DNA from: an uncultured Cytophagales bacterium
Lineage (GTDB): Bacteria; Bacteroidota; Bacteroidia; Cytophagales; Bernardetiaceae
Assembly (NCBI GenBank): GCA_964570645.1
Contig: CAZNAK010000001.1
Location: 1-28,943 of the forward strand
Direction: 5' to 3'
Length of the DNA stretch: 28,943 nucleotides
Shown piece by piece: positions 7,134-18,261 of the stretch (the first letter of the stretch is position 1; each line of letters starts with the position of its first letter). The translations under genes were made by a program, and so were the position numbers. The notes below the pieces were generated by a model. That model was not told the DNA's origin. It saw nothing but the letters and a program-made list of their open reading frames with translations, and searched no databases.

Positions 7134-10100
7134 TTACAGACGGATGCCTAAGACGCTTATATCATCTCGTTGTTCCATCGAACGCTGATGGCTGTTGAGG
7201 GCTTCCTGAATCTCATGTCCTTGTTCCTTGAGTGGCAAGGAGACAATACGTTTGATTAATTCAAAAAATTTCATAGAACCAAACTTTCGTCCACCTTCAG
7301 GACTATTCTGGTCTATAATACCATCGGTGTAGAGGTACAAAGTACTCCCCTTTTCTAATACAAAAGTTTCTTGTTCAAACGCTTTTCTACCACGCTGACG
7401 ACCGCCGATAGACCGCCTTGTACCCCGATATTTTTTGACCTGTTTCTCCCCAGCATCGTAATAAATTAAGGACTGAGAAGCTCCCGAGTACACAATTTCA
7501 TTGTCTTTTATCCTGCAAAGGCTAATATCCATCCCATCTTCGTTTGCTCCTCCTTCTTGGTGAAGGGCGTTCCGAAGTTCAAGGTGGAGATTTTCTAGTA
7601 TTTCCGCGGGTTCGCGTACAGCTCGCTCAATGACAATTTCATTTAGCAGTGTGTTGCCGATCATTGACATAAATGCACCCGGCACACCATGTCCCGTGCA
7701 ATCTGCTACCACGACAAACCAAGTCTCATCAACCTGAGCAGCCCAATAAAAATCACCCGAAACAATGTCTCTTGGTCTAAAGAGAACAAAATATTCACAT
7801 CCGATACGTGACAGCTCTTCGGCGGGAGGCAGAACGGCATTTTGTATGGTTTGCGCATATCGAAGACTATCTATTGTACGCCGATTTTCTTTTTGAATGT
7901 TTGTGTACATTCGTGAGTTGGCAAGCGCAATAGAAACGTAGGATCCGAGTGTACGTAAGAAGGTCAGGTCACGTTCTCCGTAAGTGTTCTTTTCAAAGCT
8001 CTGCACAGTCAGAACGCCTAACGAAGTATCTTCAACAACTAGAGGTAAATAAATAACGGACTGTGGAATTTTTCCTGCATGCGCTTTAAGTTCTACCTGA
8101 TCTAAATAATCCCTTAGTTCGTTATCAACATCATTAATAAACACTTCTTCTTGTGTGTGGTAACAACGTACTGCTGGGCTGCTAACGTCGTTTAGGCTTT
8201 CGGCATCAAAGGGAAGCTCTTCACCCTCTTCCATGAAGCCTCGAAACTCAAGCTGTTGACGCTCACGATTGAGAACACCAATACCAAAAGCCTCGGCGGG
8301 CATCAGTTCATTTACGTTTGCGTAAACTTCTTTAATGAGCTGTTCGGTATCTAGTTGTGCTGTTATTTTTTGACCAATATCGCTCAATGTTTTTACATTC
8401 TCGAAGGCTCTTTCCACCTTTTGTTTCTCCTTACGAAGTTCTACGGTCTGCTCTTGAATCTGCTTAGTCCGGTCGGCGACAGTCTGTTCTAACTGCTTAT
8501 TTTTTCTACGTACACGTCGTGTATTCCATTGGATACTAAGAAAGAGGGTAAGTGCTGCAATGATTACATAACCTAAGTAAGCCCACCAAGTCCTGAACCA
8601 AGGAGGTGCTATCGAGAAACGAATCGTACTCGCTTCACTGACTTGCCCTAAGGCATTTCTGCCTCGGACACTGAACGTATATTTACCCTCCCAAAGGTTA
8701 CTGTACTCTTTTTTGGTTTCTGTTGTCCAAGGTGACCACTCACTTGATTCGTTTTTGGTTTCCAGTTTGAATTGATATAAGTTAGCTTGTTCACTTTCAA
8801 AAAATGGTAAGGCATAGCGAAATATAACAGAACGCTGGTCAGAGTTAAGTTCGAGGGGCGGTGGAGTCTTTGTACCATCATACTGAGAGAACAGCAAAGA
8901 ATCATTTACGACTACTTCCCGAATCAAGACGGGCAGCAATGGGGTAAGCTCAAACTTTTCGATGGGATTATACAAAAACAGTCCTTCCGAGTTGGCAGTC
9001 CATAGCTTTCCATCGGCTTCTACGTACAAGAAATTTTCGAGTGCTTCGGGGAGACGCTGTAGCTCAGGTATCAATTCCCATTCCCATTCGTTCCTTGTGA
9101 CCATTTTGGCCTTTGCCACTGGAGTTTGGCGGGTATTAAAACCACTGATCCAGATATAGTTTCCTTTTTTACCAACCCAATTCACATGACGGCTTTCAGT
9201 GAATAAGAAGTAGTCCTCAAAACGCTCGTCAACCTCGAATACCTCTCCCGTCCAGCGGTGTACCCCTCCGCCGTTGGCAAACACCAACTCTTTTCCAATC
9301 TGATAGACAAACGTTTCAAATAGATACTTTACGGGAATCCCATATTTATCATCATTATACACCTTGACTTTGGGTGTAGGAGACAAGGGAGCTATTACAT
9401 GGACATATCCACTACCGTAAGTACCTGCCCAAAGCGATCCATCTACAGCCTGCACCATGTTACGAATAAGTGGCGAGACCTCAATAAAGCGTAATCTTGT
9501 CCAATTTCCAGTATCATATCGGATTACGGTCACGCCTTCGTTTGAGCCAGCATAGAATATCTCAGGGTTACTTCTATCTTGTATAATACTGGTGGAATTA
9601 TTATTGACCCCTGCGATGATGCTCAGCTTTCCGTCTTTGAACTCAAATACACCTCCGTTATTTGCTAGTAAAAGCGTTTTTTTTCCTCCAGGAAGGGTTA
9701 TAGACTTACCATTCCATGATTGTTTTTCATCCTTACTAAGCGGATAAAAGCGATTATTTTCTTCTAATACGAAATGATTATCACTCGTATGCGCAAATAT
9801 TTTACCTTGATGCCTGACTGCGCCTGTTACATTTCCTTTTAGCCCACTTTGTTTGTCCCATTTGCTTAACGTAGAGGAATATTCTACTTTAACTATCCCT
9901 TTATCAAGTGAAATCCAAAGGTCTCGCTCGCGGTCGAAGTGAGCATAAAAGACACTGCTAGCTATGCCTACTTGGTCCTTTAACATATCTACTTCGCTGC
10001 CATCAGGTGCTGCGACAGCGACTCGTCCGTCAAGCGATGAAAACACATAGCCCTCTTCTTCGTCCCCACTACCCCGGTAAAGCATATTGGTAAACGTAGG

Positions 10101-10862
10101 CGGGTTTTCCATAACGAAGAAGGGCTTTCGTTCCGCCCCATCCCAAAGAAAGATATTTCCGTTTCGTAGTCCAATCAGAATTTCATCATTTTTAGCGGGC
10201 AAAATAAACGCCATGGACTCATTCCCTAGGTCTTCCAGCCCTGCAACAGGCTCAAATGTCCCATTTTTATATTCAAGCAGTCCTTTACCATTTTGATTAA
10301 CGAGGAGACGATCATTGACAAAGTAAGTTCTCCGGTCAAAGAAGTTTCCACTAGGGGCTTCCAGAACCGTCAGCTTGTCTTCCTTCAAAAAGAAGAGAGC
10401 CTCATTACTACTAAATATAATGCCATAGGGAGTTTCTAAAATGCCCCAGACATCGTTATACGTCAATTCTGGATCAGGTAATTTTTCGCCAAGTCCCTCA
10501 AAAACGAGTGTTCCTTTTTCATCACGGGAGAAAAAGCCAAATTCTCCCTGTCCTCCTACGTAGATGCGCTGTGACTCACCATCTATGTGTATCGAGCGCA
10601 TCGTCGTATTATTACCTGTTGTGTGTGTCTTCCAAAAGGTCCCATCGAACTCAACCAAGCCTAAATTATTAGCAAAGTACATGAGGCCATTTTCAGCTTG
10701 GGCAGAAAACCAATTTTGGGTACTAGCTTGATACTCCTTAGGAGGATAATAATGGTGGAATGGTCGTCCGCGCTCCTCCTTTCTTTGCGCACGAGAGGTT
10801 GAGCCTAGGAAGCCAAAAAAAATTACAAAGAGATGAAGATATGTTAAGACTCGCTGCGGCAA
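7134..10862 (-). CDS. Membrane sensor PP2C phosphatase: periplasmic beta-propellers + Y_Y_Y, TM, coiled coil, GAF, SpoIIE/PP2C (SiaA/RsbU-like)
   Basis: 1242 aa, TTG start, signal peptide (SRA|Q). HTCS-type propeller repeats (GLMYFANNLGLVEFDG, DLWISLDKG, SLWAGTYGSG); YSNLWEGKYTFSVRGRN (Y_Y_Y); TM WWAYLGYVIIAALTLFLSI; GAF (SVIYLPLVVEDTSLGVLTVQS); PP2C motifs VSGDFYW, VADCTGHGVPGAFMS, DGMDI, YTDG, RDDI. Confidence 0.92.
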   Translation of the reverse strand: MPQRVLTYLHLFVIFFGFLGSTSRAQRKEERGRPFHHYYPPKEYQASTQNWFSAQAENGLMYFANNLGLVEFDGTFWKTHTTGNNTTMRSIHIDGESQRIYVGGQGEFGFFSRDEKGTLVFEGLGEKLPDPELTYNDVWGILETPYGIIFSSNEALFFLKEDKLTVLEAPSGNFFDRRTYFVNDRLLVNQNGKGLLEYKNGTFEPVAGLEDLGNESMAFILPAKNDEILIGLRNGNIFLWDGAERKPFFVMENPPTFTNMLYRGSGDEEEGYVFSSLDGRVAVAAPDGSEVDMLKDQVGIASSVFYAHFDRERDLWISLDKGIVKVEYSSTLSKWDKQSGLKGNVTGAVRHQGKIFAHTSDNHFVLEENNRFYPLSKDEKQSWNGKSITLPGGKKTLLLANNGGVFEFKDGKLSIIAGVNNNSTSIIQDRSNPEIFYAGSNEGVTVIRYDTGNWTRLRFIEVSPLIRNMVQAVDGSLWAGTYGSGYVHVIAPLSPTPKVKVYNDDKYGIPVKYLFETFVYQIGKELVFANGGGVHRWTGEVFEVDERFEDYFLFTESRHVNWVGKKGNYIWISGFNTRQTPVAKAKMVTRNEWEWELIPELQRLPEALENFLYVEADGKLWTANSEGLFLYNPIEKFELTPLLPVLIREVVVNDSLLFSQYDGTKTPPPLELNSDQRSVIFRYALPFFESEQANLYQFKLETKNESSEWSPWTTETKKEYSNLWEGKYTFSVRGRNALGQVSEASTIRFSIAPPWFRTWWAYLGYVIIAALTLFLSIQWNTRRVRRKNKQLEQTVADRTKQIQEQTVELRKEKQKVERAFENVKTLSDIGQKITAQLDTEQLIKEVYANVNELMPAEAFGIGVLNRERQQLEFRGFMEEGEELPFDAESLNDVSSPAVRCYHTQEEVFINDVDNELRDYLDQVELKAHAGKIPQSVIYLPLVVEDTSLGVLTVQSFEKNTYGERDLTFLRTLGSYVSIALANSRMYTNIQKENRRTIDSLRYAQTIQNAVLPPAEELSRIGCEYFVLFRPRDIVSGDFYWAAQVDETWFVVVADCTGHGVPGAFMSMIGNTLLNEIVIERAVREPAEILENLHLELRNALHQEGGANEDGMDISLCRIKDNEIVYSGASQSLIYYDAGEKQVKKYRGTRRSIGGRQRGRKAFEQETFVLEKGSTLYLYTDGIIDQNSPEGGRKFGSMKFFELIKRIVSLPLKEQGHEIQEALNSHQRSMEQRDDISVLGIRL

Positions 10863-10909: not shown

Positions 10910-11362
10910 TTAGGACTTTAAAATCTCGTCAATGATGTTTAAATGATGTCTTGTATGAATACGCATGAACTTCTGGGTATTCTTTAGGTTCATTTTACCA
11001 AAGTAGGGGTGTTCAAAATGATTTTTAGGGTGTAAACTAGGCAGTTTTCTTAGTATACCGTGTGTTTGCCGTAGCTGTTCATTAAGTTCTTCGATACTTT
11101 TTGGTTTTTCTGGGGCAACTTGCTTAGGTGATTTACCTACACCTCGAGGAATACCCCTTAATTTAACAAACTGCCACGAAATATTAAACGTAGGACGAGA
11201 TACATCAGGGTTAGAGCGTTCTAATGCTTGTGTAATTTTAATAAGCACTTGCATCGAGTGGTCTAAATGCCAGCCTACATCTGTTGTGGAGACGGTTTCA
11301 CTTTTCGTGCGTGCCTCAGGGATATACTCCTCAAGTTGTCTCAATTCTTTTTCAAAATTCAT
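10910..11362 (-). CDS. DinB/DUF1569-like four-helix metalloprotein
   Basis: VGWHLDHS ... HPYFGKMN ... HTRHHL is the three-His DinB superfamily pattern. Confidence 0.8.
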   Translation of the reverse strand: MNFEKELRQLEEYIPEARTKSETVSTTDVGWHLDHSMQVLIKITQALERSNPDVSRPTFNISWQFVKLRGIPRGVGKSPKQVAPEKPKSIEELNEQLRQTHGILRKLPSLHPKNHFEHPYFGKMNLKNTQKFMRIHTRHHLNIIDEILKS

Positions 11363-11386: not shown

Positions 11387-12319
11387 TCATTTTCGATTCA
11401 AGACGTACCGCATCTTTAGTTCGTAAGAGAACTGCACGGCGGGTTCAACGATCTCAGGGTTGAGCACACGATCGTACGTGTTATAGGGCAGCTTATCATA
11501 AAAATATGTTTGCGCTTTCCCCGCACGGGTAGTTGTTTTGAACTCCCCTTGTGGCAGTTGCGCACTTCGATAAGCGGAGTAACTTTCGTATCGCTCGACG
11601 GGATAAGTGCTTGCTAAATTTTCCTTAAGAATTTTATAACGAATGTGATCTCCCGAGAACCCGACCCCTAGCTTCTCGAAGCCTTCTAACTTTTCCTGTG
11701 TGAGTACAATAGCCTCACGTCGTAAGGAATCATAGACGGAATTTAATGTGTTTTGAGCGACAACGTAATCTACCTTTACTAGCTCATAAATCTCCACTTC
11801 TGCGGCTTTCAACATAATTTGATCTAGTTTCTGAATATCAGAAAAACTGATGTGAATGTTCTTGGTCAGTTCAAAGCCCGTAGGTACTTCGTTGGCATTT
11901 TTACTAAATATCTTTTTTTCAATTTCGTAGGAGTAAGTCGGCACCTGCGCAATGAAATCAATGTAAATATCGGTTTTTTCAACGATACCCTGTTCAATAA
12001 GGCTGTTTGAAAAAGTTTTGATACGCTGTTCTGCCGTCTGATTGCACGTAATGGCTGTTTTACCTGTCTGCCTTAAACTAAGAATAGCAACGTAAGCCTC
12101 TGCGGGTACATTTATCAGTAGCCGTGTCTGTATCTCAAGAGTAGAGTCATTCAAGAAACCTAGCTTACGATCAGAAGAGCTTACATTTCTGTCATTCAGA
12201 AAATTGTAATAGGTTTGACTGCGGGCGCGTTCCTGGACTTGCTTGGAGTATCCGCCCCTGACCTGAGCCTTAACATGAAAAGAAAGAATAAGGGAAACAA
12301 CGATAAGTAGATAACGCAT
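11387..12319 (-). CDS. SIMPL (DUF541) domain secreted protein
   Basis: Signal peptide (VKA|Q); GFELTKNIHISF, EIYELVKVDY, Y..LR.EAI...EK...LG, EPAVQFSYELKM.Y typical of Bacteroidota SIMPL proteins. Confidence 0.75.
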   Translation of the reverse strand: MRYLLIVVSLILSFHVKAQVRGGYSKQVQERARSQTYYNFLNDRNVSSSDRKLGFLNDSTLEIQTRLLINVPAEAYVAILSLRQTGKTAITCNQTAEQRIKTFSNSLIEQGIVEKTDIYIDFIAQVPTYSYEIEKKIFSKNANEVPTGFELTKNIHISFSDIQKLDQIMLKAAEVEIYELVKVDYVVAQNTLNSVYDSLRREAIVLTQEKLEGFEKLGVGFSGDHIRYKILKENLASTYPVERYESYSAYRSAQLPQGEFKTTTRAGKAQTYFYDKLPYNTYDRVLNPEIVEPAVQFSYELKMRYVLNRK

Positions 12320-12362
12320 AAAAAAAGTGGTGATTCTTCATGCAAGATACACCACTTTTTTT
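12320..12362. terminator. Bidirectional intrinsic-terminator-like hairpin abutting the SIMPL start codon
   Basis: AAAAAAAGTGGTG-attcttcatgcaagata-CACCACTTTTTTT: perfect 13-bp arms including A7/T7, with extra TCTT/AAGA pairing inside. Confidence 0.7.
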
Positions 12363-12400: not shown

Positions 12401-12832
12401 CTACCGGTGGAAGCCCAAAACAGCGGCACCACAGAAGTTTTTCGAGTTTCGGAACTCAAACTTGAGATAGTAAATACCCGTAGCTTCACACTTGTACGTG
12501 ATACCATTCATGAACTTTTCGTTTATGAACGAAGTACCGACTTGATTTCGCTTAGAATCATAGAGCGTAGCAATGATTCCCATAGCACCGCCATCTTTAC
12601 TAGCGATACGAATGCGATAGTCAGTGTCTTTACTAAAAACGCAAGTATATTCGATAGTCTTACGACGACCCCCACGCCCGTCAATACGATAACTTTTTAC
12701 GAAGGTGTGATCCTCCAGTCTGCTCAAGGCAACGCTAGTAAGCGTTCCTGTGTCGCATTGTGCTTCAGCGGCTTCTGGCCTTGCCCAGATTAGGCAAACA
12801 AATACGCTCAAAATGACCAATAATCTTTTCAT
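12401..12832 (-). CDS. Small secreted Cys-rich beta-sandwich protein (PPC-like domain)
   Basis: 143 aa, signal peptide (AEA|Q), 4 Cys in the mature part. YRIRIAS...ATLYDS...TGIYYLKF pattern resembles bacterial pre-peptidase C-terminal domains. Confidence 0.75.
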   Translation of the reverse strand: MKRLLVILSVFVCLIWARPEAAEAQCDTGTLTSVALSRLEDHTFVKSYRIDGRGGRRKTIEYTCVFSKDTDYRIRIASKDGGAMGIIATLYDSKRNQVGTSFINEKFMNGITYKCEATGIYYLKFEFRNSKNFCGAAVLGFHR

Positions 12833-12909
12833 AACTTAGTGTTTTGATGAAAAAGTGCTTTCTTGTTTTAGAATAGAAACAATGATAGTGTGAAAAACAG
12901 AGTTTATAA

Positions 12910-13839
12910 TTAGCTTTCGCTCACCATTTCATTTCGGATTGAGCGTATTAGATTGATGATTTGGTTTAAATCTTCATCTGTGACTTCCACAAAGGTTTTG
13001 GTAGTAGATTCAATGACAATCTCATCACCAACAACTTTCATAACGGGTTGTCCTTTTTGTTCAACGATATCGACTTTCTCGTAAGCTGTTTTTAGCTCAT
13101 TGAGGTTTTTAATCAATCCCTCGAAGTAAGGTTTTCCTTTGTACACTTCTAGAACTAACAAAATCCTTTCCAAAACAATTTTTTGCTCACCGATCTTTTC
13201 TTTGAGTTTCCCATTAGCACTCTCTTGGTACACCAAAGAGGTGATGTAAGAGGCTTCCATCCAGCCTCCTGTAAGAATGAGTATGCTTAAATAATCTCGA
13301 CGCTGTTTGGAGAGATGGAAATTTATTTTCTCAAAGTTTGAAGTCGTCAGTTGTAGTAACGAGTCCAAGTTGTCAGTATTATTTGTCAGTCGCTTGATCG
13401 TTTTATAGTCAAAAAATTGACCGATGTTTAACCCATCTGCAAGCTTTTTAACGGAGTTCAAGTAGTTTAGTGCGTCTTGATTTACCTCATAAATATTGGC
13501 ATAACCAAGATCGGTACTGTAAACCCCAAGGTTTAAAGCTTTTTTATAGTTTGTTGTGTAGCTATCTACGGACTTTGGGTCATTCAAGTCGTCCTTTTGG
13601 TACTCTGTCCCGATGTCTTTTATCAAAAATGCCACTTCGAGTGGATTGGGTATGGACTTAATAATATTAGGAATTTGATCTTCTTTGAGTTGACGAGCCG
13701 CTTCAGTAGACTCTTCAGCATCTGTATTAGTCACAGGAGTTTCGGTATCCGCACCTTCTTGCTCTTCAGGAGCGGCACCACCGCAACTTGCCAGCGTAGT
13801 GATCAGGGCAATAGATAGGAAATAGAGTATAGTTTTCAT
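12910..13839 (-). CDS. Alpha-helical hypothetical lipoprotein
   Basis: Preferred ATG at 13839 (MKTILYFLSIALITTLASC, lipobox). Acidic linker, then a helical domain (IPNPLE, KALNLGVYSTDLGY, ILTGGWMEASY). The track's start at 13863 is TTG. Confidence 0.85.
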   Translation of the reverse strand: MKTILYFLSIALITTLASCGGAAPEEQEGADTETPVTNTDAEESTEAARQLKEDQIPNIIKSIPNPLEVAFLIKDIGTEYQKDDLNDPKSVDSYTTNYKKALNLGVYSTDLGYANIYEVNQDALNYLNSVKKLADGLNIGQFFDYKTIKRLTNNTDNLDSLLQLTTSNFEKINFHLSKQRRDYLSILILTGGWMEASYITSLVYQESANGKLKEKIGEQKIVLERILLVLEVYKGKPYFEGLIKNLNELKTAYEKVDIVEQKGQPVMKVVGDEIVIESTTKTFVEVTDEDLNQIINLIRSIRNEMVSES

Positions 13840-13911
13840 GATCGGTTGCATCTGGTTAGACAATTGATACTGCTAATATACAATAATCAAAGTAAAGAAA
13901 AAGTCATTTTT

Positions 13912-16900
13912 CTATTCTTCTTTTTTAACCGTTCCTCTAGCAGGTAGCTTGAGCGTAGAGAACCAGTGAAGAACTTTTTTGAGGGTCTCAAAATAAAGCG
14001 TAATGCAAAGCAAAACTGTCATTAACCAAATAACCGCTACGTTAAATCCGTATGTATCAAACAAACCACCTCCAAAGTGTTTGTAGGGCATAAAAAACTG
14101 TGCCCGATAATCAAAGAAATTCTTTTCGGCGGGATCTATCACATGAAAGATAGGGTTCATAAGCTGTACTAACCGATTATCTTTTCGCTGAATGTACTCG
14201 GCACCGATAAAGTTATTTCTGACCGCGTCCGCAACTTTTTCAGATTCGTACATATCTTCCAGATATTTAATATTTGGACTACTCGGATTCATCTCCATTG
14301 CATATTTCACAGAGTCCACTACCTCCTCGGCTTTATTAAACTCTAGATTGTAATAATACCGGAGTTGCTCTAACATATCGCGTAAGCCAATGGCAGTTTC
14401 CTGATTGAAGCCTTTGAGCGTCAAATCGGTATTCAGGGCACGGTCAACGGTCTCGTTTAGATCATCAGCCTTGATATCCTTTTGAATCAATTTGAGTTTT
14501 TGTAGCTCTGCACTTAATAAATCCAGATCACTTTGTAGCTCTCTACGTAAAGAATCGTTCGCATTCTCACGGTATTCGAGGACGCGGTCAATGATACGTT
14601 CAATCTCTGGAATCCAGTGGCTACGTTGATAATTTGCCTGACTCTTCTTGAGTTCTTCTGGATAGAATATTTTTTGGTACTCATTCCCTTTAGCCTGCTG
14701 TACCATTAACGCCTCATAAGCCCATCGCGAGGCAAAAAAGTCTGCTAAAAGAGGTACTTGTCCCTCTTCTGAGATCGCTGTGTGCATTTGATCAAAGCGA
14801 AAAATTGCACCACTAAGAATCATTTGGGGAATTAAAAGTATTGGAATCAGGATATATACGGCTACTGCCGAGCTAAATGAAGCAGAAATATTTAGTCCCA
14901 ATACATTTGCAAAGCAAGAAACTGTAAATAGTACACCCCAGTAGGTTAGCCACATCCCACTGATCTCAAGTATTGAATTACCGATAAGGACAAAAGTTAA
15001 CGACTGAATTGCCGATAAAGTAAAGAGAATTAGTACTTTGGAAGACAGGTAACTAAACCGGCTAAGATTTAGGAACGACTCCCGCCGTTGTATTTTTCGG
15101 TCTCGTATAATCTCCTCAGCACTCACGGAAAGCCCCATGAAAAGCGATACGATGACCGCAATGAGGATGTAAGCAGGTAAATTGTCATTAAAACGAAAAA
15201 TATACTGTCCTTCGGGCCCATTGTAGTAACGGACAATTACGGAGAGGAACAGTGCCAATATAGGTGCCTCAATTAGGTTAATAACCATGTACTGGGTATT
15301 GCTGATCTTGGAGAGAAAGTCTCGAACAATAAAAATTGAGGTTTGCTTTAGTTTATTCGGGATATGAAGACTAGAGTCAGGAGCGTCAACGACTTCCGTA
15401 ACCTCCTGAATATCATGAGATACTTTGTACTGCTCATGCCACTCAGGAGGAGTGACCTTACGGACAGCAGTGAACTGGCCAAACTCATCTACTACCCGTG
15501 CTTCAATGAGATTAAAAATCAATTCGACATTTACGTTACCACAAGTGTTGCATTGCCCTGCATCACTGCCAATCTGATTGGTCGCTTGTTTGAAATAAGT
15601 AACTGCCGCAACGGGATTACCATAAAAAACGGGGTATCCACCCGTATCCATAATAAACATCTTATCAAACATCTTGAAGATGTCAGAAGATGGCTGGTGA
15701 ATAACCACAAAAATCAATTTCCCCTTGAGGGTTAGCTCTTTAAGAAGGTCAATCACATTCTCGGAGTCTCGTGAGGAAAGCCCAGACGTAGGCTCGTCCA
15801 CAAACATAACCGATGGCTCGCGAATCAACTCCAAGGCAATATTCAGACGCTTACGCTGACCGCCACTGATTTTCTTATTGAGAGGACTACCTACCTTGAG
15901 ATGTTTAATGTGATTTAGCCCCAAACTTAAAAGCACTTCATCGACTTTCTGTCGTACCTCCTTGTCGGATAAGTTATCAAAACACAGTTTAGCATTGTAG
16001 TATAAGTTTTGAAAAACGGTCAGATCTTCCATCAGGAGGTCATCCTGAGCCACGTAGCCTATCACACCCTCAATGCGCTCCTGCTCTGTGTGTATATTAA
16101 ATCCATTAATATTGACTGTTCCCTTATACGGCGTTTCTAGGCCCGCCATCACGTTGAGTAGCGTCGTTTTGCCTGCTCCCGAAGCTCCCATGATTCCTAT
16201 CAAACGTCCCGCGCTCTCCGAGATGTTAATATTTCGAAGTCCAATGTGGTCATTGGGAAAACGAAACTCTAGGTCTTTTACGTTAAAAGATAGCTTTGTC
16301 GCCGTAGTATCGGCCTTGTAAGTAGCAACTAAGTCGCTGTAATAAAGCGGCTTACCGCGAGGCGTACGAAATACGCTTCCATGAGAGAATAGCGTAATAT
16401 TGTCTTTCTTGAAGAGTTGCCCATTCAGGAAGATCTCATCGTTTCCTGTATATTTTGTGAAGTAAAGCCCAACAGAAGAGACATAAAGGAAGATAATTTC
16501 ACCATCAAGGAGTTTAGAATCAATGTAACGCCGTTTTGTCTCAGCAGGTGGCTCCTCTTCATCAAAAACTAAGAAATCCTCATGGTCGATGACTTGATAA
16601 GAGTCGTCGGCACGAACAAAGCTTTCTATCAGATTATATTGATCTTTGGGAATGTTGAATACCTCAGCAACCGTATCAATGATCTCCATACGGTGTTTGG
16701 TAAACTTGTTGTCAGCGGCGAGCATCTCAAGAAGCTTGAAAAGAACAATCGTCTTTTGTTGCTGTGTGAGTGTTTTGTTGATCCTTCGACAGATTCCTAA
16801 AACCCTCACTGAGTCAACGGTACTTGTATCGTCACTTTCGGCTTTTCTTTTTGCTCGTTTCCAGGCTCGATACTCTTTTTTAGCTACGGAGTCGCTTTTA

Positions 16901-17130
16901 TCTCGTCCCTTCCAATCAAATTCATCAGGAACCTCTACGGGTTTTGGCGCGTGTTGGCCATACTCGGCCATTTTATCATAGAGGTCAACATATTCCTTTA
17001 CGGTTTTTGTATCTAACTCCTGCTTAAAATAGCGAATAACAAAGTTGCGTTCGCCATCTGTTACACCACCATCCTGTTTAGAGATAATGGCAAAAAGTTG
17101 AGTTAGTGCTTTTAGTATTTCTTCACTCAT
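13912..17130 (-). CDS. ABCG-like fused ABC transporter: TerB-like N-terminal domain + NBD + ABC2-type TMD with large extracytoplasmic helical insert
   Basis: Walker A GASGAGKT (16165-16188), Q-loop YVAQDD, signature ISGGQRKR, Walker B VMFVDEPTSGL, H-loop VIHQP. NBD precedes TMD; E(I)IRDRKI..RE and SRWAYEAL ABCG-type motifs; N-terminal L..L.....DG.VT..E / AAD TerB-like helices. Confidence 0.92.
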   Translation of the reverse strand: MSEEILKALTQLFAIISKQDGGVTDGERNFVIRYFKQELDTKTVKEYVDLYDKMAEYGQHAPKPVEVPDEFDWKGRDKSDSVAKKEYRAWKRAKRKAESDDTSTVDSVRVLGICRRINKTLTQQQKTIVLFKLLEMLAADNKFTKHRMEIIDTVAEVFNIPKDQYNLIESFVRADDSYQVIDHEDFLVFDEEEPPAETKRRYIDSKLLDGEIIFLYVSSVGLYFTKYTGNDEIFLNGQLFKKDNITLFSHGSVFRTPRGKPLYYSDLVATYKADTTATKLSFNVKDLEFRFPNDHIGLRNINISESAGRLIGIMGASGAGKTTLLNVMAGLETPYKGTVNINGFNIHTEQERIEGVIGYVAQDDLLMEDLTVFQNLYYNAKLCFDNLSDKEVRQKVDEVLLSLGLNHIKHLKVGSPLNKKISGGQRKRLNIALELIREPSVMFVDEPTSGLSSRDSENVIDLLKELTLKGKLIFVVIHQPSSDIFKMFDKMFIMDTGGYPVFYGNPVAAVTYFKQATNQIGSDAGQCNTCGNVNVELIFNLIEARVVDEFGQFTAVRKVTPPEWHEQYKVSHDIQEVTEVVDAPDSSLHIPNKLKQTSIFIVRDFLSKISNTQYMVINLIEAPILALFLSVIVRYYNGPEGQYIFRFNDNLPAYILIAVIVSLFMGLSVSAEEIIRDRKIQRRESFLNLSRFSYLSSKVLILFTLSAIQSLTFVLIGNSILEISGMWLTYWGVLFTVSCFANVLGLNISASFSSAVAVYILIPILLIPQMILSGAIFRFDQMHTAISEEGQVPLLADFFASRWAYEALMVQQAKGNEYQKIFYPEELKKSQANYQRSHWIPEIERIIDRVLEYRENANDSLRRELQSDLDLLSAELQKLKLIQKDIKADDLNETVDRALNTDLTLKGFNQETAIGLRDMLEQLRYYYNLEFNKAEEVVDSVKYAMEMNPSSPNIKYLEDMYESEKVADAVRNNFIGAEYIQRKDNRLVQLMNPIFHVIDPAEKNFFDYRAQFFMPYKHFGGGLFDTYGFNVAVIWLMTVLLCITLYFETLKKVLHWFSTLKLPARGTVKKEE

Positions 17131-17178
17131 GTAATAAGAAGATTAAAACCGTGTTCGAGCCGCTTAAAAAAAGTATCG

Positions 17179-17215
17179 GCACACTTTTATACCTTTTGAA
17201 AGACAAAAAGTGTGC
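17179..17215 (-). terminator. Hairpin between siaC and the ABC gene (possible attenuator or weak terminator)
   Basis: GCACACTTTT...AAAAGTGTGC perfect 10-bp arms plus inner CTTT/AAAG. On the minus strand it is followed after 6 nt by a T7 run. Confidence 0.5.
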
Positions 17216-17222
17216 TAAACCC

Positions 17223-17591
17223 TTAGTAAGTATTAAACTCGAAAGGAATATCCTCAACCAAATCTGAAAATTCTTCGCCTGCCTCTTCCATATCTTCGTC
17301 ATCTTCATGGTAATACCACATGATGACCGTACCCTCAATTTCTTCGAGCTTCGATAAGATGTCAAGGATCAGTTTGGAAGAAGCCGTATTAAAATATTCA
17401 AGACGAAAGTTAAAGCGTGTCTCAGCTAATTTTTCAGCTTTATAACGCTCCAGCCAGTCCAAAATAGGTTGATAAAATTCTGCCGCATCTTCAGGCAGAG
17501 AACGCCCCGAAATCTCGAAGTGGGATTCTTGCTTGTTGAGGACGACCGCCGGGGTATCTTCTGTTCCGGGAAGGTTGATAACTTCCAGCAT
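17223..17591 (-). CDS. siaC: SiaC-family (DUF1987) phospho-switch protein
   Basis: TEDTPAV, ISGRSLPEDAAEFY.P..DW, LEYFNTASSK (Thr equivalent to the SiaC phosphosite), WYY.EDDEDM.EAGEEF. Confidence 0.92.
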   Translation of the reverse strand: MLEVINLPGTEDTPAVVLNKQESHFEISGRSLPEDAAEFYQPILDWLERYKAEKLAETRFNFRLEYFNTASSKLILDILSKLEEIEGTVIMWYYHEDDEDMEEAGEEFSDLVEDIPFEFNTY

Positions 17592-17640
17592 ATTCGTGTA
17601 TGGTTACGGGTTAGTTAAATTCGTTTTTATTCAGAGAATA

Positions 17641-17648
17641 CAAAAGTA
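17641..17648 (-). promoter_or_regulatory. Candidate -7 box (TACTTTTG) between siaB and siaC
   Basis: Plus-strand CAAAAGTA is TAnnTTTG on the minus strand, in the 72-nt gap. No -33 box seen; could be chance. Confidence 0.3.
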
Positions 17649-17663
17649 CAAAATCTCTCATGG

Positions 17664-18218
17664 TTACTTCATAGTCGGAATGGTGACGGTAACTTTAAGA
17701 GAAAAAAATTTGAGTTCGTCGTTAATTGTTTCCATTTCATAGATGAGTGGGTTTCCTGTTTTTTTGCGCATGTCAATAAAACCAAGCCCAGCCCCTCCTC
17801 TTTCAGAAAGTTTCATGACTTCCTTCAATCGCTTTCGATAAGCGTCTTTTATTTCTGCTTTATCCATTGCGTTTAGGGTCTCAATTTTTGAGGTAATTTT
17901 TTCAACCTCGCCTACCTCCACAGGATTTCCTGTCGTAATAACATAAGCGTCATCGCGCTTTCCCAGTAGAAAAATAGCGTTTTTCTTTCCGTATTTCTCC
18001 TGATTAAACTCAGAAGAATGTCGGTAGATATTTTGAAGAGCTTCCATCATGACGTTGAAAACCTTCCTTTTGATCTTAGATTCTTCTCCAAAAGAATCCA
18101 TGTTCCGTTCTGCCATTGCTAAGACAGACTTCGTGATTTCTTGAGAAAATTCGCCTTCATATACAAGCAACAACTGCTGCTTTAGCATAGTCCGATGAAG
18201 ATCATAAATATATTTCAT
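17664..18218 (-). CDS. siaB: SiaB-family (DUF6272) GHKL-type protein kinase
   Basis: Preferred ATG at 18218 (MKYIYDLH). YEGEFSQE, KRKVFNVMMEALQNI..H (N-box), TGN, SERGGAGLGFIDM..K.G (G-box). Confidence 0.9.
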   Translation of the reverse strand: MKYIYDLHRTMLKQQLLLVYEGEFSQEITKSVLAMAERNMDSFGEESKIKRKVFNVMMEALQNIYRHSSEFNQEKYGKKNAIFLLGKRDDAYVITTGNPVEVGEVEKITSKIETLNAMDKAEIKDAYRKRLKEVMKLSERGGAGLGFIDMRKKTGNPLIYEMETINDELKFFSLKVTVTIPTMK

Positions 18219-18261
18219 GAGCAAAATGTCGGTTAGCGAGCGTTTTGGACGCGAATCTAAT

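Follow-up and report, generated by a model that had tools for sequence, protein, structure and literature searches.

A conserved Cytophagales locus in which a Sia-type kinase and phosphoprotein adjoin an ABCG-like exporter

Introduction

In the SiaABCD system of Pseudomonas aeruginosa, a PP2C phosphatase (SiaA), a kinase (SiaB), and a DUF1987 phosphoprotein (SiaC) act together with a diguanylate cyclase (SiaD) (PMC8457831, PMC7647112). The crystal structure of SiaC bound to SiaD (7E6G) shows SiaC residues Y65, N67, T68, S69, I71, M75, D79, R103, L107, and E110 gripping the helical stalk of SiaD, and binding is abolished by phosphorylation of T68 or by N67A/T68A/S69A; its authors put forward the idea that proteins of the DUF1987 family act as modulators of adjacent ones (PMC8457831). 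Here, we describe a locus in which siaB and siaC stand instead beside the gene for an ABCG-like ATP-binding cassette (ABC) transporter, followed by genes for a lipoprotein and a small secreted protein. The locus lies in a 28,943-nucleotide stretch of DNA, called the window below, from an uncultured Cytophagales bacterium of the family Bernardetiaceae (GenBank assembly GCA_964570645.1, contig CAZNAK010000001.1, positions 1 to 28,943). Our reading, to which we give a probability of roughly 0.6, is that this five-gene group supplies the output side of a partner switch of the Sia type, one whose target is the exporter and not a diguanylate cyclase.

Two further systems are close enough to matter here. 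Rv1747 of Mycobacterium tuberculosis is an ABCG-type exporter encoded beside the gene for the Ser/Thr kinase PknF, and its transport is under the control of threonine phosphorylation (PMC3138270). In the RsbK-RsbM-RsbY pathway of Bacillus cereus, which feeds the RsbV/RsbW partner switch, a CheR-type enzyme methylates a signalling helix of the sensor (PMC4574943). An earlier sequence-only reading of the window knew of no characterised system like the one encoded here. A literature search of incomplete coverage returned no paper describing one, and none in which an ABC transporter or Bacteroidota are connected with SiaB/SiaC or DUF1987.

Results

A Sia-type kinase and phosphoprotein in one unit with a transporter

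The five genes are consecutive open reading frames (ORFs) on the minus strand of the window at 12401-18224, in the order siaB, siaC, transporter, lipoprotein, and secreted protein (Table 1), and they are separated by gaps of 72, 92, approximately 70 (counted from the likely ATG of the lipoprotein at 13839), and 77 bases. The last gene is followed by a strong terminator-like hairpin with flanking A- and U-tracts, whose stability was equalled by 0 of 200 shuffles, and we counted this hairpin and the short gaps in favor of an operon. A pattern scan for sigma-70 promoters and terminators was uninformative because Bacteroidota promoters differ and the true hairpin was missed. The sequence-only reading had described the same five genes, on one strand and ending at a terminator, with a YFNTASS phosphosite in siaC, a fused ABCG-like transporter, a lipoprotein followed by a secreted protein, and no GGDEF gene in the window. 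Each element of that description was recovered, including the U-tract of the hairpin, the motif EYFNTASS in SiaC, a nucleotide-binding domain (NBD) and a transmembrane domain (TMD) within one 1072-residue protein, and a lipobox and a signal peptide in the last two products; a domain search of the window found no GGDEF domain.

SiaB scores 172.5 bits against the NCBIfam model SiaB_fam_kinase (NF038262, cut-off 85), matches Pfam DUF6272 (PF19788) at 1e-39, and aligns over its full length with P. aeruginosa SiaB (6KKO_A, E 4e-16). Against the P. aeruginosa equivalog model NF038264, it reaches 97 bits, under the cut-off of 225, and so it is a member of the family and not an ortholog. SiaC matches Pfam SiaC (PF09345) at 3e-40 (136.9 bits, cut-off 24.5). 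When it is aligned to P. aeruginosa SiaC (PDB 6KKO/6K4F, E 3e-17), its EYFNTASS falls on the LYLNTSS loop, which puts Thr69 on the phospho-acceptor Thr68 and makes it the putative phosphorylation site of this protein. The SiaC proteins linked to the transporter are unusually conserved, with a mean column identity of 81% over 60 orthologs.

The genome from which the window comes (3.04 Mb, 80% complete) contains six SiaC genes, five SiaB-family genes, and 43 SpoIIE-domain matches. The sixth SiaC copy (L002, contig C382:96-470) resembles the SiaC of a convergent paralog clade described below (LEYFNTSSSKC...EEDDEDMEE) and has one TAA stop inside the family-search match. A second TerB-ABCG gene was not found in this incomplete genome.

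The same genome was searched for GGDEF domains together with 40 relatives from 22 families of the order (41 genomes, 36 of high quality), and none was found in any of them by a search that, as a positive control, matched 8 of 14 known genomes. Thus, on the evidence of this 80%-complete genome and the 40 relatives, a SiaD-like cyclase encoded elsewhere, which the sequence-only reading had raised as the possible true target, is not the target of SiaC.

Linkage of siaB-siaC with the transporter gene is conserved

We scanned one genome per species and obtained 554 relatives of the transporter, of which the best 80 (52-77% identity) were examined as a close set. Two wider sets were added, one of 20 loci from a phylum-wide sample that included distant paralogs and one of 40 loci spread across the score range of the order. 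siaC lies within 2.5 kb of the transporter gene in 110 of 139 loci. As determined by tblastn and ORF clustering, siaB-siaC stand directly upstream on the same strand in approximately 72 of the 79 usable close loci, and the lipoprotein and secreted protein genes follow directly downstream in approximately 70 of them; four loci, from a subgroup with 55% identity, lack all such neighbors, and the other exceptions are loci cut by contig ends. Among the 40 order-wide loci, siaB-siaC precede the transporter in 29.

Three arrangements occur. The first is PP2C-siaB-siaC-ABC-lipoprotein-secreted protein. In the second, found in a distant paralog clade (approximately 42-44% identity; L095:3026-8398, L103:2931-8451, L100, and L105), the lipoprotein gene is upstream of the transporter, and siaB-siaC are convergent at the transporter 3′ end. 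In the third (L092:4554-11051), a PP2C gene is followed by two siaB and two siaC genes in tandem and then by the transporter. Other paralogs have the lipoprotein alone or no conserved neighbor. The transporter head is present in 168 of 301 genomes of the order and 16 of 22 sampled families, and in 13 of 401 genomes of an even phylum sample.

Chance falls far short of explaining an arrangement found in 110 of 139 loci of this transporter family, and the retention of the linkage through three rearrangements points to a functional tie. This survey, which the sequence-only reading had called for, does not bear out the adverse case named there, in which siaBC and the ABC gene would rarely be adjacent in relatives. 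That the adjacency is a historical accident without function is very improbable given this frequency, its spread over at least 16 families of the order, and the very high conservation of the transporter-linked SiaC orthologs.

Predicted contact between SiaC and the transporter head

Complex prediction was performed with transporter residues 1-590, the whole cytoplasmic N-terminal half, together with SiaC, using 60-row alignments drawn from the same loci. The complex scored 0.68 (three runs, 0.67-0.71), and the best control scored 0.00. Of 80 solved complexes, 58 reached this mark, as did 2 of 110 mismatched pairs; these counts are only rough because our own alignments were used. On the SiaC side, the predicted interface consists of residues 64-73, 76, and 95-111, that is, the start of alpha-2 including Thr69 and the acidic alpha-3, which is the same face that P. 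aeruginosa SiaC uses on SiaD in 7E6G. On the transporter side, it consists of residues 89, 92-93, 101-112, 115, 146, 149-150, 152-153, and 156-157, all in the TerB-like domain. The sequence-only reading had guessed that the output of SiaC could be the cytoplasmic N-terminal domains of the transporter and had proposed a structure-model test of SiaC with residues 1-280; the model supports the guess, narrows the contact to 89-157, and predicts that SiaC binds the transporter with the putative phosphosite in the interface.

The transporter contact residues T102, V104, S107, V108, L111, R147, I150, I151, and T153 are among the most conserved of the TerB-like domain. The motif S107-V108-[KR]-x-L111 together with T153 is present in 93 of 110 siaC-linked transporters versus 7 of 29 unlinked ones (3 of the 7 being cut by contig ends), a comparison that is confounded by phylogeny and is not an independent statistic because the linked and unlinked classes are clades. 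In paralogs that stand alone or with the lipoprotein only, the interface columns have 0.00-0.20 identity to the linked consensus versus 0.33-0.41 for the rest of the domain.

It is also conceivable, although we consider it unlikely, that siaBC share their location and perhaps their expression with the transporter cassette while SiaC acts on another protein, which could be the PP2C sensor, another regulator, or an enzyme encoded at an unlinked place. The transporter would then be an output in parallel, or have a co-regulated role, without binding SiaC itself. In this genome, SiaC paralogs (six) and SiaB-family genes (five) occur in varied contexts and are not generally tied to transporters, and gene neighborhood alone is weak evidence of binding. 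Against another target are a linkage that outlasts three independent rearrangements, a passed complex test, in which every control scored 0.00 and the phosphosite fell within the interface, and interface residues that are conserved and enriched in the linked transporters.

Several observations weigh against the exporter as the target of SiaC, in addition to the phylogenetic confounding of the motif comparison. siaC is not nearby in 29 of the 139 transporter loci, and approximately 15% of the linked transporters deviate from the strict motif. The five other SiaC paralogs of this genome have other contexts (their neighbors include truA and a fructose-bisphosphatase-like gene), and it is clear from this that proteins of the SiaC family act on further targets. 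The complex score expresses the confidence of the model, which may partly recall the usual binding face of SiaC because SiaC-SiaD and SiaC-SiaB complexes have already been solved. No phosphatase gene is adjacent in this genus. RNA evidence of co-transcription was sought, and the sequence was present only in three DNA runs from one microbial-mat study. Finally, the reading does not account for the FHA-like domain of the transporter, which is without the canonical phosphothreonine-binding Arg and His.

Anatomy of the transporter and the FHA-like domain

The NBD of the transporter precedes the TMD (ABC_tran, residues 298-449, 1e-31; ABC2_membrane, residues 596-783, 4e-14), and the translation retains intact motifs for Walker A, signature, Walker B, and H-loop. 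The best NCBIfam match is TIGR00955 of the ABCG/White type, at 249.8 bits over residues 294-816; the cut-off of 736 is not reached, and so the transporter is ABCG-like but falls outside the eukaryotic subfamily. Among proteins of solved structure, it is most closely related to Cdr1, Pdr5, and ABCG1/2/5. Hydropathy indicates five helices across residues 613-780, then approximately 230 mostly polar helical residues; the chain ends with one more helix at 1028-1050 and a tail rich in Lys and Arg. The helical insert of approximately 230 residues occupies the position of ABCG extracellular loop 3 and, by ABCG topology and the positive-inside rule, is probably periplasmic. A Cys-x-x-Cys pair just past the NBD (C527/C530, residues 527-530, 15541-15552) is invariant in 60 orthologs and could be a metal or redox site.

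The head was modeled from residues 1-295 and 42 orthologs (predicted local distance difference test, pLDDT, 85.9). Residues 1-175 form a two-lobed helical bundle that resembles the TerB-family structures 2h5n (Z 9.9, root-mean-square deviation [rmsd] 3.4, 114 aligned residues) and 2ou3 (Z 8.4), and its AlphaFold DB matches are TerB and DjlA-N proteins; Pfam TerB (PF05099) matches at 25.9 bits, barely over the cut-off of 24.4. A profile search of the head against the sequences of solved structures gave only NBD matches, which came from the tail of the alignment.

Residues 183-275 are modeled as a small beta sandwich. Its matches are dozens of FHA domains of solved structure, with Z 6-7.9; among them are Rv1747 FHA-2 (6cah, Z 6.8) and 6hbz (Z 7.6, rmsd 2.3, 77 aligned residues). 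Foldseek gives probabilities of 0.9-1.0 with weak E-values, and matches in this Z range have only moderate specificity. Since FHA domains read phosphothreonine and Rv1747 is positively regulated by threonine phosphorylation (PMC3138270), phospho-SiaC might be the active ligand, its pThr69 being read by the FHA-like domain as in Rv1747, with the TerB contact as a resting or competing state. The fold match and two nearly invariant basic residues near the loops, K226 and K255, are consistent with this. However, there is no Pfam FHA match in the transporter, and the canonical Gly-Arg and Ser-x-x-His are replaced by G210-E211 and S219-V-G-L in loops located from the model strands and not by residue-level superposition, with no Arg or His conserved among 42-60 orthologs. 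Thus, the domain appears to keep the FHA fold without its functional signature. The complex model, moreover, puts SiaC on the TerB-like domain, although such a model is unable to represent phosphate. We consider a phospho-SiaC ligand improbable and retain docking of unphosphorylated SiaC on the TerB-like domain as the preferred reading.

The canonical input half is missing in this genus

In approximately 60 of the 80 related loci, a PP2C sensor of approximately 1150 residues with dCache, HAMP, GAF, PAS, and PP2C domains directly precedes siaB. The canonical locus starts with a CheR methyltransferase, a receiver-less CheB methylesterase, and a GAF protein, followed by the sensor PP2C (L013:2633-8682, L064:3035-8913, and approximately 55 others); no CheA or CheW gene is nearby in the canonical Cytophagales loci. 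A predicted esterase is often encoded downstream of the secreted protein in the related loci.

In the window and in the same-genus locus L007 (genome G466, 100% complete), no PP2C, GAF, CheB, or CheR gene precedes siaB. Three other genera of the family have the full-length sensor phosphatase beside the transporter, at 51-53% identity over 1145 residues, whereas G466 and the genome of the window gave PP2C-domain matches only, with no full-length ortholog. We therefore rejected an assembly artefact as the cause of the missing PP2C gene, since the complete same-genus genome also lacks the full-length ortholog that the three other genera have. Orthologs of CheR-CheB (60-66% identity) are found on another contig (C49:1499-2937), with unrelated genes after them. 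From these comparisons, we conclude that the genus has lost the canonical input half (CheR-CheB-GAF-sensor PP2C) at this locus, and so another of the genome's 40-odd PP2C proteins would have to serve.

The candidate nearest at hand is encoded 1.5 kb downstream of the unit, past the hairpin (Table 1). Its PP2C part matches SpoIIE at 6e-23 and has SiaA as its best NCBIfam match (206 bits, partial). Orthologs of this gene are found downstream in two Bernardetia-like loci (L011 and L026), which also keep the canonical phosphatase, and none is present in L007, which has an unrelated GAF-PP2C gene at that place.

PP2C proteins are greatly expanded in the family, with a PP2C-containing query giving 52-70 matches per genome in four members (G401, G466, G496, and G526). 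In the Cesiribacter/Nafulsella group (L067:13945-16289, L071:16475-18783, L083:16479-18799, and L085:16083-18374), a second Sia-like module lies 2-4 kb downstream of the operon and consists of a PP2C gene and, on the opposite strand, a siaC of 45% identity with two divergent siaB genes.

The lipoprotein, the secreted protein, and neighboring genes

The lipoprotein has the lipobox LASC with a nearly invariant Cys27 and is the most constant neighbor of the transporter family, adjoining even paralogs without siaBC. It has no Pfam or NCBIfam match, and fold searches with its model (pLDDT 83.6) revealed no clear relative among solved folds and gave no functional clue, the matches being confined to DUF5667-like models, helical bundles of a non-specific kind (Z ≤7.1), and proteins that are themselves uncharacterised. 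The secreted protein, of 143 residues with a signal peptide and four Cys, comes after the lipoprotein in most canonical loci. Atlas look-ups placed both proteins in unnamed Bacteroidota clusters only, with a PPC-like hint for the secreted protein.

The U-tract of the hairpin ends one base 5′ of the ATG of the next gene, a SIMPL-family gene at 11387-12319. Thus, some read-through is possible, and as there is no room for a promoter between the hairpin and this ATG, the SIMPL-family gene would be expressed by read-through or start further in. We rejected the SIMPL-family gene and the DinB-like gene (10910-11362) as parts of the system because they are absent from all 80 related loci. In L007 (14792-20194), the secreted protein is followed by a UvrA-like protein, the unrelated GAF-PP2C protein (678 residues), and a low-molecular-weight phosphotyrosine phosphatase, so the region downstream of the operon is unconserved even within the genus.

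Table 1. Positions of the five-gene unit, its domains, and associated features in the window
Feature	Positions	Strand	Support
siaB, SiaB-family Ser/Thr protein kinase (GHKL/RsbW-like), approximately 184 residues from the ATG at 18218	17664..18218	-	NF038262, PF19788, 6KKO_A
siaC, DUF1987/SiaC phosphoprotein, 122 residues, putative phospho-acceptor Thr69 in EYFNTASS	17223..17591	-	PF09345, alignment to P. aeruginosa SiaC
ABCG-like half-transporter, 1072 residues, with regulatory head and periplasmic insert (probable)	13912..17130	-	Domain matches; motifs in translation
Transporter residues 1-175, helical bundle resembling TerB/DjlA-N, with the predicted docking site for SiaC (residues 89-157)	16606..17130	-	PF05099, model, 2h5n, 2ou3
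Transporter residues 183-275, FHA-like beta sandwich immediately preceding the NBD	16306..16584	-	Structure matches
Transporter residues 298-520, NBD	15571..16239	-	PF00005, 1e-31
Transporter residues 596-800, membrane domain of the ABC-2 type with five hydrophobic helices	14731..15345	-	PF01061, 4e-14; hydropathy
Transporter residues 800-1025, helical insert, probably periplasmic; last transmembrane (TM) helix 1028-1050	14056..14730	-	Hydropathy, charge distribution
Helical lipoprotein, uncharacterised Bacteroidota family	12910..13839	-	Lipobox; model pLDDT 84
Small secreted 4-Cys protein, PPC-like by language-model features	12401..12832	-	Signal peptide; Atlas clusters
Terminator-like hairpin and U-tract closing the five-gene unit	12320..12362	-	Free energy -23.8 kcal/mol; z -4.5
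Propeller/Y_Y_Y-TM-GAF-PP2C protein, 1242 residues, candidate SiaC phosphatase, membership in the system not established	7134..10862	-	SpoIIE 6e-23; SiaA partial match

Discussion

The locus is a conserved, undescribed variant of a known signalling module, and the window holds a reduced form of it in an uncultured microbial-mat bacterium. In the mechanism that we propose, SiaB would phosphorylate SiaC on Thr69, and a PP2C phosphatase would take the phosphate off. Unphosphorylated SiaC would then dock on the second half of the TerB-like bundle (approximately residues 89-157) through its residues 64-76 and the acidic alpha-3 (95-111), and docking would alter the adjacent FHA-like/NBD module and hence export. 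This contact would be lost once Thr69 carries a phosphate, which is how phosphorylation acts on the SiaC-SiaD pair of P. aeruginosa. The probably periplasmic insert of approximately 230 residues, the lipoprotein, and the small secreted protein may make up the envelope side of the machine, and in most Cytophagales, the input would be the Cache-HAMP-GAF-PAS-PP2C sensor phosphatase flanked by CheR and CheB.

A fuller picture, which we put forward tentatively and hold somewhat less probable than an even chance, is an undescribed signal-gated exporter of Cytophagales. A sensor phosphatase for an extracellular ligand, tuned through methylation by CheR/CheB, would set the phospho-state of SiaC; SiaC in its unphosphorylated form would clamp the TerB-like head; and the pump with its envelope partners would move a lipid or other surface component, the sensor having been swapped in the genus of the window.

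SiaC/DUF1987 proteins are widespread and have SiaD as their only known output, and this locus offers a candidate second target with an interface predicted at the level of residues. With no GGDEF proteins found in 41 genomes of this order of Bacteroidota, the Sia module there had no known output, and an exporter as output, if true, would explain its presence. It would also mean a new form of post-translational control of ABC exporters, in which a switchable small protein docks on a TerB-like head. The fuller picture given above would amount to a chemosensory-style pathway with export as its output instead of motility or transcription. The transporter family concerned is found in more than half of the sampled Cytophagales genomes.

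Among the known systems, the canonical Cytophagales input resembles RsbK-RsbM in combining a CheR-type methyltransferase with a sensor that is not a chemoreceptor, a PP2C, and a partner switch (PMC4574943). It differs in that the B. cereus sensor is a hybrid histidine kinase and the output is sigma-B (PMC4574943), and the window locus itself lacks the CheR, CheB, and sensor genes, its genome having CheR-CheB on the other contig.

With SiaABCD, the locus shares a SiaB-family kinase, a SiaC with the same phospho-threonine loop, and a predicted target contact that sets the same SiaC face against target helices, so that phosphorylation should block binding. Unlike SiaABCD, it has no GGDEF protein to act on, none having been found in its own genome or in 40 relatives of the order, and SiaC is predicted to act on an ABC exporter, through its TerB-like head. 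The phosphatase differs as well: SiaA is a HAMP-PP2C protein, whereas the relatives of the window have the Cache-HAMP-GAF-PAS-PP2C protein of approximately 1150 residues with CheR/CheB, and no such gene adjoins siaB at this locus.

Like Rv1747, the transporter is of the ABCG type with the NBD before the TMD, has an FHA-fold domain directly N-terminal to the NBD, and is encoded with a Ser/Thr kinase gene adjacent. PknF, however, is a Hanks-type kinase that phosphorylates the linker of the transporter, whereas SiaB is of the GHKL type and the proposed acceptor is a separate small protein; no Pkinase domain was found among ten genes scanned at the locus. The FHA-like domain here is also without the phosphate-binding Arg and His of its counterpart, and the system has, in addition, a TerB-like domain, an insert that is probably periplasmic, and two proteins of the envelope.

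A looser likeness is to the SulP/SLC26 anion transporters, in which the STAS domain is part of the same chain as a secondary transporter, with no dedicated kinase/phosphatase pair to switch it. SiaC is structurally related to STAS (PMC8457831) and would likewise be a STAS-like regulatory module acting on a membrane transporter, but as a protein of its own and not as a fused domain.

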